NCBI RefSeq assembly: GCF_000011805.1
Contig: NC_006841.2
Source of the DNA: Aliivibrio fischeri ES114
GTDB lineage: Bacteria > Pseudomonadota > Gammaproteobacteria > Enterobacterales > Vibrionaceae
DNA: 24,000 bases
Reading direction: 5' to 3' (one strand)
Position 1 is the first letter of the stretch. The number at the start of each line of letters is the position of its first letter. The notes under the pieces are model-generated. The model was not told the DNA's origin and ran no database searches. It saw only the letters and a list, made by a program, of their open reading frames with translations. The position numbers were made by a program, and so were the translations under genes. Of the stretch, positions 2,669-9,810 are shown piece after piece.

Positions 2669-2771
2669 ATAACGCCACAATAACACGTGCGAAAGACTGA
2701 CTTACAAAACCAATTATACTCCAAACCGCGAATGCCGAATGTAAATAGCATCGTGTTGATTGCTTTGTTAT
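2669..2771 (-). repeat. Integron attC site, short 103-bp subtype (cassette 10)
   Basis: ATAACGCCACAATAACACGTGCGAAAG...GTAAATAGCATCGTGTTGATTGCTTTGTTAT. It has the same terminal cores as the other attC sites but a shorter, different centre. Its closest relative is the attC at 5608-5710. Confidence 0.85.
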
Positions 2772-3230
2772 ACGAGCCTTGCTTTCGCTCCAATTAACTT
2801 GGTAAAGAACTGATTTACCAAGATTTGCTGTAAACTGAGTTTAATTAGACTGGCTCAATTAAGCGAGCAAAATATCCAACCAACAACAATAATTGTGAAA
2901 CGAAACAATCCCTTTTTCTTACACTATTTGTACGATTTGGTTTCATCAACTTCTGAGCTAATAAACCAAATATCCTAACCACAATTGGGATTGAAAATGC
3001 TGCGAGGAAAACACTGATGCAGGCTAAAATGAGGCAAAACCATGAACAATTGAAGCGTAAATTAGTTTCTGAAACGCCTGAATTTGGGGCAATAATAGTT
3101 CAATGCCGAACCTGATGAAACGAACACTAAAAGGCAACAAAGAAAAAGGAAAACCACCTTACTTTCACACCTAAAAAACTAATGGTTCAATCGCTGAACT
3201 GAACCAAAAAACTGCATTCTCAGAGTTCGT
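2772..3230 (-). other. ORF-less integron cassette, paralog A (candidate structured non-coding element)
   Basis: 459 bp between two attC sites with no track ORF. It is alignable along its length to 5711-6168, with substitutions and indels. Conserved hairpins at 2798-2822, 2935-2971 and 3184-3205. Confidence 0.6.
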
Positions 3231-3351
3231 ATAACGCCTGCATAACACGTTTGCTACCGTGCAGATTAAGATCAAATTTACCACTTAAAACAGTAAACTC
3301 AAAGAAACCTAGAATGCCGAGTGTAGCAAATCGTGTTGATGCATTTGTTAT
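3231..3351 (-). repeat. Integron attC site (cassette 9)
   Basis: ATAACGCCTGCATAACACGTTTGCTAC...GTAGCAAATCGTGTTGATGCATTTGTTAT, 121 bp. Confidence 0.9.
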
Positions 3352-3910: not shown

Positions 3911-4033
3911 ATAACGCCGCAATAACACGTTTATTACTACGACAACTTAGCTAAATTTTACTGCCTTAAACACTGAAACCAAAGAGAAACCTACAACGCC
4001 GAATGTAATAAATCGTGTTGATTACTTTGTTAT
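3911..4033 (-). repeat. Integron attC site (cassette 8)
   Basis: ATAACGCCGCAATAACACGTTTATTAC...GTAATAAATCGTGTTGATTACTTTGTTAT, 123 bp. Confidence 0.9.
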
Positions 4034-4138
4034 GCGGCACAAATAAAATTAATTGTGTGGAACCAAGATACTACCCGCAGTTACATTAACCAAAAACGGT
4101 TACGATACTTAAAATTTGCACAAAACTAAGAGAACAGA
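4034..4138 (+). promoter_or_regulatory. Conserved upstream region (putative own promoter/5' UTR) of the reverse-oriented membrane-protein gene
   Basis: This 105 bp differs at only 5 positions from its paralog at 6292-6396. It contains TTAACC-N18-TAAAAT and TTACAT-N18-ATACTT sigma70-like combinations. A gene antisense to the cassette direction cannot use Pc. Confidence 0.35.
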
Positions 4139-4441
4139 ATGGATGCTATTGCTCATTTAATTATCATTTTAGGGAATCCATTTGTATATAAAATTGGACA
4201 TCTAATTATTTCAATTTTAAGCATTGGTAAATTGTCCATTCAACCATTACCAACTAAATTTTCCGCTAATTTTGTGCAAGCGTTTGACGAAGATAAAATC
4301 GTAGAAAGTCAAAATAAACAAAACTACTCAATCTCATATGTAATTGCCCTTACCATTGGTTACGCTGTAACTATAGCTATCTTTGGAACCCTATTATTTT
4401 ATAATATCGATAGTTTTATTGAAGCTCAATCATCGAACTAA
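4139..4441 (+). CDS. Small two-TM membrane protein (100 aa), reverse-oriented in cassette, copy 1
   Basis: Two hydrophobic segments (AHLIIILGNPFVYKIGHLIISILSI and YVIALTIGYAVTIAIFGTLLFY). Compared with the paralog at 6397-6699 there is no indel, 9 silent codon changes and 11 replacements (hand count), consistent with purifying selection. Confidence 0.72.
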   Translation: MDAIAHLIIILGNPFVYKIGHLIISILSIGKLSIQPLPTKFSANFVQAFDEDKIVESQNKQNYSISYVIALTIGYAVTIAIFGTLLFYNIDSFIEAQSSN

Positions 4442-4632: not shown

Positions 4633-5043
4633 TTAATAATTTAACTCTGAACATTCAGCAGCAAAGAAACGCCAATGAGCTTCACGCCACCATTTTAATG
4701 AACAGTCGCCCTCGCCTTCTACATGAGCAAACTCAGCCGTAACTTCGTTATATTTACACGTTTCAACTGAATCAATTTCAATGATACAAATTGGTTTCCC
4801 ATTCCAATCAACGACTACTTGTAAATGACCAACGGTTGGCATTGGTTCTTCACCAGATTCATACCAAACATTTAAGCTACAAGTTGCTGTCTTTTGACCA
4901 ATTCGGATTAATTCTGCGCATAAATTGGCATTATGCTCATCAGCACAGAAATAGTCTGAACTGAATGATTGATACTTTTCACGTTTAATTTCAGAAAGTG
5001 AGCTTAGATACTGATCCAAGTAGATTTGAGACTGTTCTTCCAT
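4633..5043 (-). CDS. ASCH domain protein (YhfF-like, PUA-like fold)
   Basis: 136 aa. Pattern FCADEHNANLCAELIRIGQKTATCSL ... VTAEFAHVEGEGDCSLKWWREAHWRFF is typical of ASCH/YhfF proteins. AGAGGA RBS 4-5 nt upstream. Confidence 0.82.
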   Translation of the reverse strand: MEEQSQIYLDQYLSSLSEIKREKYQSFSSDYFCADEHNANLCAELIRIGQKTATCSLNVWYESGEEPMPTVGHLQVVVDWNGKPICIIEIDSVETCKYNEVTAEFAHVEGEGDCSLKWWREAHWRFFAAECSELNY

Positions 5044-5069: not shown

Positions 5070-5190
5070 ATAACACCTGCATAACACGTTTGCTACCATG
5101 CAGATTAAGCTTAAATTTACCACTTAACGCGGCAAACCCAAAGAAATCTAGAATGCCGAATGTAGCAAATCGTGTTGATGCATTTGTTAT
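5070..5190 (-). repeat. Integron attC site (cassette 6)
   Basis: ATAACACCTGCATAACACGTTTGCTAC...GTAGCAAATCGTGTTGATGCATTTGTTAT, 121 bp. Confidence 0.9.
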
Positions 5191-5280
5191 ACGTGTCTAC
5201 TTTAGTTTGAATAAGCATATATACAAAACTTAATATAAATTACATCTTATCACAGCTAAAACAACACAAGAGATATGAAT

Positions 5281-5312
5281 AAAAAAAGGGCTCGATGACT
5301 GGAATCGAACCC
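5281..5312 (-). terminator. Rho-independent terminator (module 1)
   Basis: The minus strand reads GGGTTCGA-ttccagtca-TCGAGCCC followed by TTTTTTT. The 8-bp stem includes a U-G wobble that would be a C-A mismatch if transcribed from the plus strand. Confidence 0.78.
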
Positions 5313-5436
5313 TGAACGTGAAATGCCTGTCTACAGCAGCACAAAAATTATGAGGAGCTCCAGTTTATTACTGGAATCACTCTTAACCAACTGTAAAATA
5401 AGACAGGTTTGTTTTTAACGCTACCCCCCTCGGCAC
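5281..5436 (-). ncRNA. Candidate small RNA module 1 (5' end undefined)
   Basis: No credible ORF. It shares conserved blocks with module 2 (ATTTTACAGTT, GTAATAAA, GTGYTGCTGTAGACARGCATTTCAYGT) and ends in its own terminator. Confidence 0.4.
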
Positions 5437-5471
5437 AAAAAAAAGGGACTCATTGGCTAAAATTGAGTCCC
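5437..5471 (-). terminator. Rho-independent terminator (module 2)
   Basis: The minus strand reads GGGACTCA-attttagccaa-TGAGTCCC followed by TTTTTTTT. The 8-bp stem is perfect. Confidence 0.82.
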
Positions 5472-5607
5472 AGACATGAAATGCTTGTCTACAGCAACAC
5501 ATAAGTAAGGAGTGACTACGATTTTATTACATTGACACTGCCTTACTAACTGTAAAATCAGGTAGGTTACTATTAAATATTTATAATTTGGACGTCATTG
5601 ATTTCGT
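5437..5607 (-). ncRNA. Candidate small RNA module 2 (5' end undefined)
   Basis: Tandem paralog of module 1 with the same conserved blocks but a completely different terminator stem sequence. No credible ORF. Confidence 0.4.
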
Positions 5608-5710
5608 ATAACGCCGCAATAACACGTGCGAACGACTTACTTTCCAAACCAATTATACTTCAAACCACAAACGCCGAGTGTAATTAGCATCGTGTTGATT
5701 GCTTTGTTAC
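5608..5710 (-). repeat. Integron attC site, short 103-bp subtype (cassette 5)
   Basis: ATAACGCCGCAATAACACGTGCGAACG...GTAATTAGCATCGTGTTGATTGCTTTGTTAC. Paralog of the attC at 2669-2771. Confidence 0.85.
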
Positions 5711-6168
5711 ACGATCTTTGTCAACGCTTCGCTTTAATTGGTAAAGAACTGATTTACCAATAATATTTAGAAACCAATTCTAAATTACAAAAGCTAATTT
5801 AGCGAACAAAAGAACCGTTCAACTACAAAAACTGCGAAACGAAACAATCCTTTTTCTAGCACCATTTGTACGATTTAGTATCAGCAAGTTTGGAGCTGAT
5901 AAATCAAATATCTTTGCCACAATTGGGATTGATAATGTTGTGAGGAAAACACTGATGCAGGATAAAATGAGGCATAACCAAAGAACAATTGAAGCGTAAA
6001 AATATCTCTGAAACGCCTGAACTTAGATCGACAATAGTCAATTGCCGAACCAAATGAAATGAAAGCTAAAAGGAAACAAAGAAGAAGGAAAACTACCCTA
6101 CTTTAACATCTAAAAATCGAATGGTTCTATCGCTGAACTGAGCCAAAAAACTGCAATCTTTAGTTCGT
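5711..6168 (-). other. ORF-less integron cassette, paralog B (candidate structured non-coding element)
   Basis: 458 bp with no track ORF, alignable to 2772-3230. Hairpins at 5737-5761, 5879-5901 (extendable to 5873-5909) and 6123-6144. Confidence 0.6.
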
Positions 6169-6291
6169 GTAACGCCGCAATAACACGTTTATTACTACGA
6201 CGACTTAGCTGAATTTTACCGCCTTAAACACCTAAACCAAAGACAAACCTACAACGCCGAATGTAATAAATCGTGTTGATTGCTTTGTTAT
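6169..6291 (-). repeat. Integron attC site (cassette 4)
   Basis: GTAACGCCGCAATAACACGTTTATTAC...GTAATAAATCGTGTTGATTGCTTTGTTAT. Positions 6170-6291 are identical to 4451-4572. Confidence 0.9.
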
Positions 6292-6396
6292 GCGGCACAA
6301 ATAAAATTAATAGTGTGGAACCAAGGTACTACCCACAGTTACATTAACCAAAAATGGTTACGATACTTAAAACTTGCACAAAACTAAGAGAACAGA
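6292..6396 (+). promoter_or_regulatory. Conserved upstream region of the reverse-oriented membrane-protein gene, copy 2
   Basis: Paralog of 4034-4138 with 5 differences in 105 bp. This non-coding stretch is at least as conserved as the coding region that follows it. Confidence 0.35.
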
Positions 6397-6699
6397 ATGG
6401 ATGCTATTGCTCATTTAATTATCATTTTAGGGAATCCATTTGCATATAAAATTGGACACCTAATTATTTCAATTTTAAGTCTTGGTAAATTGTCCATTCA
6501 ACCATTACCAACTAAATTTTCTGCTAATTTCGTGCAAGCCTTTGACGAAGATAAGGTCGTAGAAAACCAAAATAAACAAAACTACTCAATATCATATGGA
6601 GTTACCCTTTCCATTGGTTACGCTGTAACTATAGCTATCCTTGGAACCCTATTATTTTATAATATTGATAGTTTTATTGAAGCTCAAACATCAGAATAA
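6397..6699 (+). CDS. Small two-TM membrane protein (100 aa), reverse-oriented in cassette, copy 2
   Basis: Paralog of 4139-4441. Same length and same TM layout. Confidence 0.72.
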   Translation: MDAIAHLIIILGNPFAYKIGHLIISILSLGKLSIQPLPTKFSANFVQAFDEDKVVENQNKQNYSISYGVTLSIGYAVTIAILGTLLFYNIDSFIEAQTSE

Positions 6700-8826: not shown

Positions 8827-9810
8827 ATGGATATCCCATTAGATCTTAAACCAGATTCACAACGCTTCACCGATCAACTTCGAATTTTCATTCGAACACG
8901 TGCGCTAGCCTATAATACAGAGAAACAATACATATATTGGATAAGTTGCTTTATTCGTCATAACAACTACACATCAAAAGACGAAATTAACGCCTTTGAT
9001 ATACCAGCCTACCTTGAGCACTTAGTCGTAAAACAGAACGTATCGCCAAATACCCAAAAAACCGCGTTAAACGCACTCATATTTTTATGTCGCGAATACC
9101 TACAACAATCAGTCGATAACCTTGAATTTAAACGTTCTAAAAAAGCCACTAAATTGCCAACTGTATTTACTCATGGTGAAGCCATCTCCGTTATAAATGA
9201 ACTTAACCACCCCACTAAGCTGATTGCACAACTTATGTATGGGAGCGGTTTACGAATAAACGAAGCATTAAGGCTAAGAGTAGATGACATCGATCTTATC
9301 CATAAAACCATCACCATAAGAAATGGGAAAGGTAATAAAGACAGGACTACTGTACTACCCGAGAGCATCATTCCAGAGCTTAAAACGCAACTCGAGTTTG
9401 TAAAACAACAACATAAAATGGATGCAATAAACGGGGATGATGAAGTTTATCTACCTAATGCCATTGCAAAAAAATACCCTCACAGAGCAAAAAGTTATGG
9501 TTGGCAATATGTGTTTCCTTCAAAACAGATCAGCAAAGATCCACGTTCAGGTCAGCATCGTCGACACCACATGTTAGATAGAAGCGTTCAAAAACAAGTA
9601 ACCAATGCAATAAAAAAACTTGAGATAGATAAGAAAGCCAGCAGCCACACATTTAGGCATAGCTTTGCGACACGAATTTTAGAACGGGGTGGAGATCTAA
9701 GGACAATACAAGAATTATTGGGTCATTCTGATATCAAAACGACCCAAATTTATACTCACGTAATAGGCTTACACTTCTCAGGAACGAAAAGCCCATTAGA
9801 CTTTGATTAA
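8827..9810 (+). CDS. intI: Integron integrase (tyrosine recombinase IntI)
   Basis: 327 aa. Catalytic blocks [25 protein letters not shown] and [15 protein letters not shown] (R-H-R-Y). It also has the IntI-specific additional segment [39 protein letters not shown]. The gene is divergent from the attC array. Confidence 0.95.

Follow-up and report, generated by a model that had tools for sequence, protein, structure and literature searches.

The 24 000-nucleotide stretch of DNA analysed here (the window) contains the chromosomal integron of Aliivibrio fischeri ES114 (contig NC_006841.2), and two of its cassettes, with bodies at 2772–3230 (copy A) and 5711–6168 (copy B), are paralogues without an annotated gene. 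We consider it fairly probable (roughly two chances in three) that A and B are members of an abundant, orientation-locked and non-coding family of promoter-type cassettes in the sedentary chromosomal integrons of Aliivibrio. One line of evidence for this reading is the identity of copy A: its sequence appears under the name F2 (a cassette of V. fischeri ES114) in supplementary Table S1/Table 1 of Blanco et al. (2024; PMC11014356), where it was located by searching the supplement for one conserved block.

In that source, sense-strand GFP values of 27- to 101-fold are given for F1–F3 of V. fischeri ES114, with F2 and F3 lying in strength between PcW (19-fold) and PcS (525-fold), and the strong sense-strand promoter of F2 was validated by reverse-transcription quantitative PCR (Blanco et al., 2024). 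Size-matched control fragments of lacZ gave no promoter signal. Copy A drives array-strand transcription in vivo in the reporter; F2 was, in addition, one of two cassettes picked for antisense activity, and both of its strands were transcribed there. Start sites in F2 were mapped by rapid amplification of 5' cDNA ends at cassette positions 239, 408, 430, 440, 455, 466, 474, 490 and 510 (Blanco et al., 2024). A hairpin shared by A and B (hairpin 1, below) corresponds to positions 414–438 of F2 and is bracketed by the 408–474 start-site cluster, and positions 490 and 510 fall inside the recombination site attC. F3 of the same study is a third and more divergent member of the A/B family. Copy B is missing from the three gene-less ES114 cassettes listed and tested in that paper.

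As a promoter cassette acting at the level of DNA and transcription, such an element would have RNA polymerase start inside it, mostly in the 3' part from around hairpin 1 into attC. From there the array strand would be transcribed onward through the following cassette, which could re-activate cassettes too far from Pc. Copy B may act like copy A, judging from its sequence. A hairpin with a U-run at the 5' end, intact in A and degraded in B, might stop incoming transcripts, by which the cassette would 'reset' transcription, and hairpin 1 probably coincides with, or is close to, the 5' end of some mapped F2 transcripts and may stabilise them.

Cassettes, family and constraint

The integrase gene intI points away from its own array. 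The sense strand, transcribed from Pc, is therefore the minus strand (the array strand), on which most cassette open reading frames (ORFs) also lie. At least 11 attC-type repeats of ~125 bp each were mapped between 375 and 8095. Copies A and B are both bounded by attC sites in the array beside intI, as expected of integron gene cassettes; each has GTT/AAC triplets on both sides and its own attC at its low-coordinate end. A repeat pairing 2668–2844 with 5607–5783 (D7; 81% identity) covers the attC of A and B and reaches ~70 nt into the bodies. The features are as follows.

8827–9810, plus strand: integron integrase gene intI, with Phage_integrase and SAM-like domains and 99% identity to the A. 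fischeri integron integrase.
5612–6172, minus strand: whole cassette B (body and own attC), from attC core triplets read by eye, the mapped attC repeats and the orientation given by intI.
5711–6168, minus strand: body of copy B, paralogue of the published cassette F2, 79% identity to A (nhmmer E = 9.8e-152).
5612–5710, minus strand: attC of cassette B, aligning with the attC of A.
2673–3235, minus strand: whole cassette A, F2 of Blanco et al. (2024), between VF_A0655 and VF_A0656.
2772–3230, minus strand: body of copy A, found as an nhmmer match.
5910–6024, minus strand: highly conserved unstructured core of copy B (…TTCAGGCGTTTCAGA…TACGCTTCAATTGT…GCCTCATTTT…CATCAGTGTTTT…TCAATCCCAATTGTGG), folding z-score ~0.

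An earlier reading of the DNA letters by themselves (the sequence-only reading) had described A and B as aligning end to end, sharing no ORF, and retaining three hairpins with highly conserved unpaired blocks between them. This description stands. The two bodies differ by 96 substitutions over 459 nt (79% identity; transition:transversion 47:49) and three single-base indels, with nhmmer E-values of ~1e-150. In A no ORF exceeds 45 aa and in B none exceeds 49 aa, and both copies fall within the gene-less definition of Blanco et al. (2024), with no annotated gene and no ORF >210 bp. The three hairpins are found where they had been placed, the count of eight differences over the 41-nt stretch of hairpin 2 is correct, and the unpaired blocks are among the most conserved columns of the 164-copy family described next.

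Collection of homologs, proposed with the sequence-only reading, was carried out by a pattern scan and a profile search. A 22-base pattern from the core, applied to one genome per species, gave 104 loci, nearly all in Aliivibrio (fischeri, sifiae, logei, finisterrensis and several other species); outside the genus there was one locus in Vibrio sp. F13 and one in Photobacterium lutimaris. An nhmmer profile of A and B then found at least 234 copies in the 104 loci, 164 of them unique and near full-length. They come from nine Aliivibrio genomes and one Aliivibrio metagenome-assembled genome (MAG), one Vibrio and one Photobacterium, the copy numbers per Aliivibrio isolate genome being at least 44, 39, 34, 34, 28, 17, 14, 9 and 8, with two copies in the MAG. 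No family copy was found in the viral contigs and PLSDB plasmids searched. A further locus (L074, a Gammaproteobacteria MAG) matches the 22-base pattern without matching the family profile, and this match is probably due to chance or fragmentary.

Pairwise identity within the family ranges from 65 to 96% (median 80%). Orientation is fixed: within any one of the 104 loci, family copies are confined to a single strand, which for A and B is the array (minus) strand. Neighbouring copies are directly adjacent, with only attC between them, in 55 of 130 cases, and tandem runs reach six copies. In the alignment, blocks typical of different sub-families are combined like a mosaic: A-, B- and F3-type 5' ends occur with matching or mixed 3' ends, a pattern that suggests recombination among copies.

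Parsimony changes per column average 7.5, with a variance-to-mean ratio of 11.6, and 69 columns never change when 0.2 would be expected; at most 22 of these 69 could be forced by the search pattern. The most constrained stretch is the unstructured core (2972–3085 in A, 5910–6024 in B), and the hairpin 1 region is also strongly constrained. Such heterogeneity of rates argues for position-specific, purifying selection on the sequence; gene conversion alone would not give this pattern. Together with a family of at least 234 copies, it bears out the earlier judgement that the element is not decaying junk.

A palindromic YYAATTGW motif (CAATTG/TAATTG), seen by eye, occurs four times in conserved blocks (alignment columns 138, 193, 260 and 390; about 3105, 3050, 2985 and 2860 in copy A); it could be a protein-binding site or simply reflect AT-rich palindromes. 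The consensus sequences of IHF and H-NS, compared with the core by eye, did not fit. The 22-mer TCGGCAATTAAGCATTGTCGGC, which forms hairpin 4 in F3-type copies, is identical to a block in the gene-less cassette P4 of V. parahaemolyticus (L012:248-269, L022:7109-7130, L032:2304-2325, L064:6363-6384, L077:303-324 and L098:324-345). The family profile also matches V. parahaemolyticus P1 collinearly but weakly (E = 7e-4), and P4 is borderline. The P4 block and the P1 match hint at a wider relationship within Vibrionaceae, perhaps through a shared module. A superfamily with the gene-less cassettes of V. cholerae and V. vulnificus was considered and dropped, profile scores other than those for P1 and P4 being at the level of shuffles; the cassette sequences used in this comparison were taken from a machine-read PDF and may carry errors.

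The neighbours of the two copies are as follows. On the array strand, copy A is followed downstream by VF_A0655 (1746–2633) and copy B by F1 and then VF_A0658 (4633–5043). F1 is the cassette at 5190–5603 and adjoins copy B, which thus sits between F1 and VF_A0659. In Blanco et al. (2024) F1 is labelled 'VF_A0658-VF_A0659'; that interval holds two gene-less cassettes, F1 and copy B. On the minus strand F1 contains two similar units of ~150 nt, each with a G+C-rich hairpin at its end (5445–5471 and 5287–5313) followed by 7–8 T on the array strand; one of the hairpins was called terminator-like and the other is GGGACTCA…TGAGTCCC. F1 looks like two small terminated transcription units. A tRNA T-arm-like sequence, GGTTCGATTCC, lies inside one of its hairpins, and ARAGORN finds no tRNA there. 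A second duplicated cassette is present at 3912–4211 and 6170–6469 (95% identity over 300 nt), one copy of it directly upstream of copy B in array order. It carries two 100-aa ORFs that correspond exactly to VF_A0657 and VF_A0659 of A. fischeri ES114, on the plus strand and so antisense to the array; a Pfam search with both gave no match. The exact correspondence of these two ORFs places the window in the integron of ES114 chromosome II.

Hairpins, folding and covariation

Besides the three hairpins already mentioned, two more were found (hairpins 4 and 5). Their positions in the two copies are given below.

5737–5761, minus strand: hairpin 1 in B, ATTGGTAAA / TTTACCAAT, overlapping a -35-like TTGGTA.
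2798–2822, minus strand: hairpin 1 in A, followed by a -10-like GTTAAT/TAATTG at 2790–2797.
5780–5802, minus strand: hairpin 5 in B, CTAAATTA / TAATTTAG, 8 bp, not in the sequence-only reading.
5873–5909, minus strand: hairpin 2 region in B, inner stem TATCAGC/GCTGATA kept, outer stem degraded.
2935–2971, minus strand: hairpin 2 in A, outer stem ATTTGGTTT / AAACCAAAT.
6026–6052, minus strand: hairpin 4 in B, TCGGCAAT / ATTGTCGA, with one G·U pair on the array strand; z-score -1.3 in the sense direction.
6111–6146, minus strand: hairpin 3 in B, degenerate and with a shortened T-run, not called terminator-like.
3172–3207, minus strand: hairpin 3 and T-run in A, terminator-like on the array strand (TGGTTCAGTTCAGCGATTGAACCA TTAGTTTTTT).

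The hairpins are real and conserved features of the whole family. The regions of hairpins 1, 2 and 3 fold better than shuffled sequences on both strands (mean z-scores of -2.2 to -3.1 over 38–116 unique variants), hairpin 4 is intermediate, and four control regions, including the most conserved core, give -0.5 to +0.3; the core of ~115 nt itself shows no folding propensity (z ~0). Whole bodies reach -1.9 to -3.3 with no consistent strand. A search for a global consensus structure with RNAalifold on both strands returned local hairpins only and no clear strand preference. No Rfam 15 family matches the window at the gathering score, or the segment 2600–6400 at E ≤ 1, and ARAGORN found nothing. 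A hammerhead-like CTGATGA…GAAAC on the plus strand, noticed by eye, was discarded, having neither a stem II nor an Rfam match.

The sequence-only reading had gone further and held that the hairpins are maintained by compensatory change. Pair counts, made on 148 family sequences, do not bear this out. The closing pair of hairpin 1, in which a double swap between A and B had been seen as preserving the stem, is C–G in 101 copies, A–U in 13 and a mismatched C··T in 33, so that the mismatch is commoner than the swapped form; the swap is thus a difference between haplotypes, easily broken up by recombination. F3-type copies have CAGGG in place of TAAAT in the left arm of hairpin 1 and an invariant right arm, and their pairing is kept only through G·U on the array strand. 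For hairpin 2 a stem in a shifted register had been proposed in copy B. The family consensus instead is a nested hairpin of 13 pairs that holds both stems, an outer one of 9 bp and an inner one of 4–5 bp, with 93.9% of cells paired; the inner stem is gone from A, and little of the outer one is left in B. Hairpin 3 is a mixed case. One of its pairs has true alternatives in the family, U–A in 48 copies and C–G in 27, but copy B, where a wobble had been thought to keep the pairing, is an uncompensated intermediate with C·A on the array (minus) strand. In hairpin 5, pairs 396/404 and 397/403 show G–C/A–U/G–U and A–U/C–G alternatives.

For the three hairpins of the sequence-only reading the covariation score equals that of shuffles, with 6 pairs changed on both sides against 5.6. 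For the RNAalifold consensus, measures based on cell counts exceed the shuffles, whereas the measures robust to relatedness do not (pairs changed on both sides, 18 versus 20.2; extra pair types, 89 versus 91.6); the excess in cell counts arises because the family is divided into three sub-family haplotypes. The robust measures are thus at control level. A strand bias is also seen. The paired fraction is higher in the sense than in the antisense direction for hairpin 2 (94% versus 86%) and hairpin 3 (95% versus 75%), G·U variants outnumber C·A variants on the array strand, and stem columns are enriched in A>G and C>T relative to non-stem columns; counted per column, this asymmetry is 17:11 versus 59:67, which from the counts does not look significant. 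Selection for pairing is suggested, not demonstrated.

Proposed promoter role and alternative readings

Of the two options left side by side by the sequence-only reading, a structured RNA or a DNA-level element, the second is upheld by the identity of copy A with the published promoter cassette F2, and the first, in so far as it was argued from compensatory change, is not. Several points nonetheless weigh against a promoter role. The start sites of F2 are scattered and their authors suspect that initiation is partly spurious and AT-driven (Blanco et al., 2024); the sites could be placed on the coordinates of the window to about ±7 nt only. Copy B keeps the -35-like TTGGTA in the left arm of hairpin 1, but its -10-like hexamer after hairpin 1 differs from that of A, and a consensus promoter scan finds no sigma-70-like site in B. 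The stem of hairpin 3 in A, with 10 pairs of which three are G–C, is weak for a terminator. Direct adjacency of 55 out of 130 neighbouring copies would be wasteful for promoters and also fits selfish amplification, and a promoter does not obviously need a near-invariant core of ~115 nt or three to five hairpins. In A the same scan gives three weak sites, a number not above that in shuffled sequences; promoter predictions for such cassettes were shown to be unreliable by Blanco et al. (2024). An exact fit of the published start sites to promoter hexamers failed, the -10/-35 boxes of the paper lying at inconsistent distances, and a sigma-54 reading of TGGCAG…TTCTT in F3-type copies was rejected for want of the GC at -12. 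As to the predicted 5' terminator, a stem-loop followed by a U-run is present in A (3206–3183, then TTAGTTTTTT) and absent from B. Among the 110 copies that have no F3-type 5' end, the U-run after hairpin 3 is conserved; the F3-type 5' end is non-homologous yet folds into a hairpin with the conserved GGTTC arm, without the U-run.

A structured non-coding RNA of the array (minus) strand, either a cis-acting leader or a trans-acting small RNA, with hairpins 1–5 selected for pairing and the promoter being its own, is in our judgement unlikely. It would account for the folding of hairpins 1–3, which the control regions do not share, for the preference of G·U over C·A in hairpins 2 and 3 together with the A>G and C>T enrichment in stem columns, for the true pair alternatives in hairpins 3 and 5, and for the retention of a hairpin on the GGTTC arm at an otherwise unrelated F3-type 5' end. 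Transcription of both strands of F2 in the reporter is also in keeping with it, and small RNAs are stated as not excluded in that study (Blanco et al., 2024). Yet there is no Rfam match even at E = 1, changes on both sides of pairs and extra pair types show no excess over shuffles, the cell-count excess is explained by haplotypes and the G·U asymmetry does not look significant. In 33 copies the closing pair of hairpin 1 is a mismatch, the core, though conserved best, lacks structure, and the whole-body z-scores are modest and favour no strand. The literature on small RNAs or locus tags of the region yielded nothing beyond Blanco et al. (2024) and Boucher et al. (2006; PMC1382264). Tentatively, and as an improbable idea, we can picture the family as a 'transcription reset' element of Aliivibrio integrons that is modular and works at the RNA level, or else as a regulatory RNA present in many copies. 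Here the 5' terminator hairpin would end incoming transcripts and the internal promoter would restart transcription, while hairpins 1, 2, 4 and 5 on the array strand would give the new transcript its shape or stability, or make up a trans-acting small RNA, and the near-invariant core of 115 nt might be where a factor of the host or the integron binds. We know of no discrete RNA for this Aliivibrio cassette family.

Quite unlikely, too, is a selfish or neutral cassette amplified through attC recombination, duplication and gene conversion, its hairpins and promoter being by-products of an AT-rich sequence. The high copy numbers, the tandem runs of up to six, the mosaic blocks and the scattered, possibly spurious start sites are what it would lead one to expect, and selfish elements are among the options raised by Boucher et al. 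(2006). Mobility, however, needs only attC, and the body has 69 invariant columns against 0.2, held across 65–96% identity and across species; moreover, the lacZ controls of matched size were without promoter signal (Blanco et al., 2024). A decayed protein-coding cassette, whether for a small membrane protein of ~107 aa read from the array strand or for a conserved micro-ORF read from the other one, is highly improbable. Stop-free stretches of at least 90 codons are indeed found on the array strand in 51 of the 164 copies, but they lie in three different frames with different stops and GTG or TTG starts, and the array strand is 38% T, so that stop codons are rare by composition. The 98-aa open frame of some copies matches only 19 Aliivibrio proteins, all derived from the same cassette, and has no homolog outside the family among 5.8 billion clusters. 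These proteins (P0136–P0154; 60–130 aa, some of 107 aa, annotated as 'hypothetical' or 'membrane' inside cassettes, for example at L001:3399-3858 and L033:582-1041) are probably annotation artefacts of the T-rich strand. A small membrane protein pseudogene was rejected, the frames differing between copies and codon periodicity being absent: column variability shows no 3-periodicity in five ungapped blocks (p = 0.47–0.97), and the A/B substitutions have no codon phase (17/12/15, 6/8/5 and 12/12/8). A Pfam search of candidate peptides from both strands gave nothing meaningful, no ORF common to all 164 copies was found, and bodies of 458, 459, 460 and 461 nt each occur frequently. The small ORFs tested from A (three) and B (four), 32–49 aa long, are absent as annotated proteins among ~15 billion. 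A conserved translated micro-ORF had been raised in the sequence-only reading as something that might explain the conserved blocks. The candidate is a plus-strand ORF of 14 aa (MQTKMRHNQRTIEA) whose end falls in one and the same alignment column in 128 of 164 copies (78%), but its Shine–Dalgarno-like GAGG varies in position, its variable codons are non-synonymous and 22% of copies are frame-shifted, so it does not explain them. On these sequence features the cassette family is judged to be non-coding.

Relation to known systems

The element exists and is conserved, but most of it is already accounted for, copy A being a published and assayed cassette, and the finding mostly rediscovers known biology. 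What is new here is incremental: the size of the family and its constraint, the family-wide hairpins including hairpins 4 and 5, the terminator-like 5' hairpin, and copy B as a member outside the tested set. Large chromosomal integrons hold hundreds of cassettes beyond the reach of Pc, and gene-less promoter cassettes are the current explanation for the expression of distant cassettes; once mobilised, promoter cassettes can switch on resistance cassettes. One type of promoter cassette thus forms a large family under strong constraint, and an Aliivibrio genome carries dozens of its copies. If its hairpins or core are functional, as terminator, stabiliser or binding site, the family would represent transcription punctuation of engineered appearance rather than accidental AT-rich promoters.

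With the promoter cassettes of Blanco et al. (2024) the present family shares copy A itself (F2), the lack of an annotated gene and of any ORF >70 aa, and sense promoter activity; the family, its copy number, its conserved core and its hairpins are not described in the available part of that paper. Boucher et al. (2006) found the non-coding cassettes of Vibrio to be highly paralogous, conserved from end to end both within a species and from one species to another, restricted to vibrios and without a synonymous-site pattern, counted seven of them in the array of V. fischeri ES114, and proposed that they are selfish elements, promoters or regulatory RNAs. Our family is likewise non-coding, paralogous and conserved, and the hypotheses are the same, but that study predates the Aliivibrio genomes used here and contains neither structure analysis nor experiments.

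Like Rho-independent terminators, hairpin 3 of A is a stem of 10 pairs directly followed by TTAGTTTTTT on the array strand, but its stem is A+T-rich, it is degraded in B and replaced in F3-type copies, and its action is a prediction. Tansirichaiya and co-workers reportedly described, in 2019, ORF-less integron cassettes with promoter activity from Treponema and oral metagenomes; these are likewise gene-less and drive neighbouring cassettes, although their sequences are unrelated to ours. Xanthomonas campestris is said to produce a trans-acting small RNA, sRNA-Xcc1, from an ORF-less integron cassette. The likeness to our cassettes, drawn by description only, is that both are integron cassettes without an ORF, and the Xanthomonas cassette yields a regulatory RNA.

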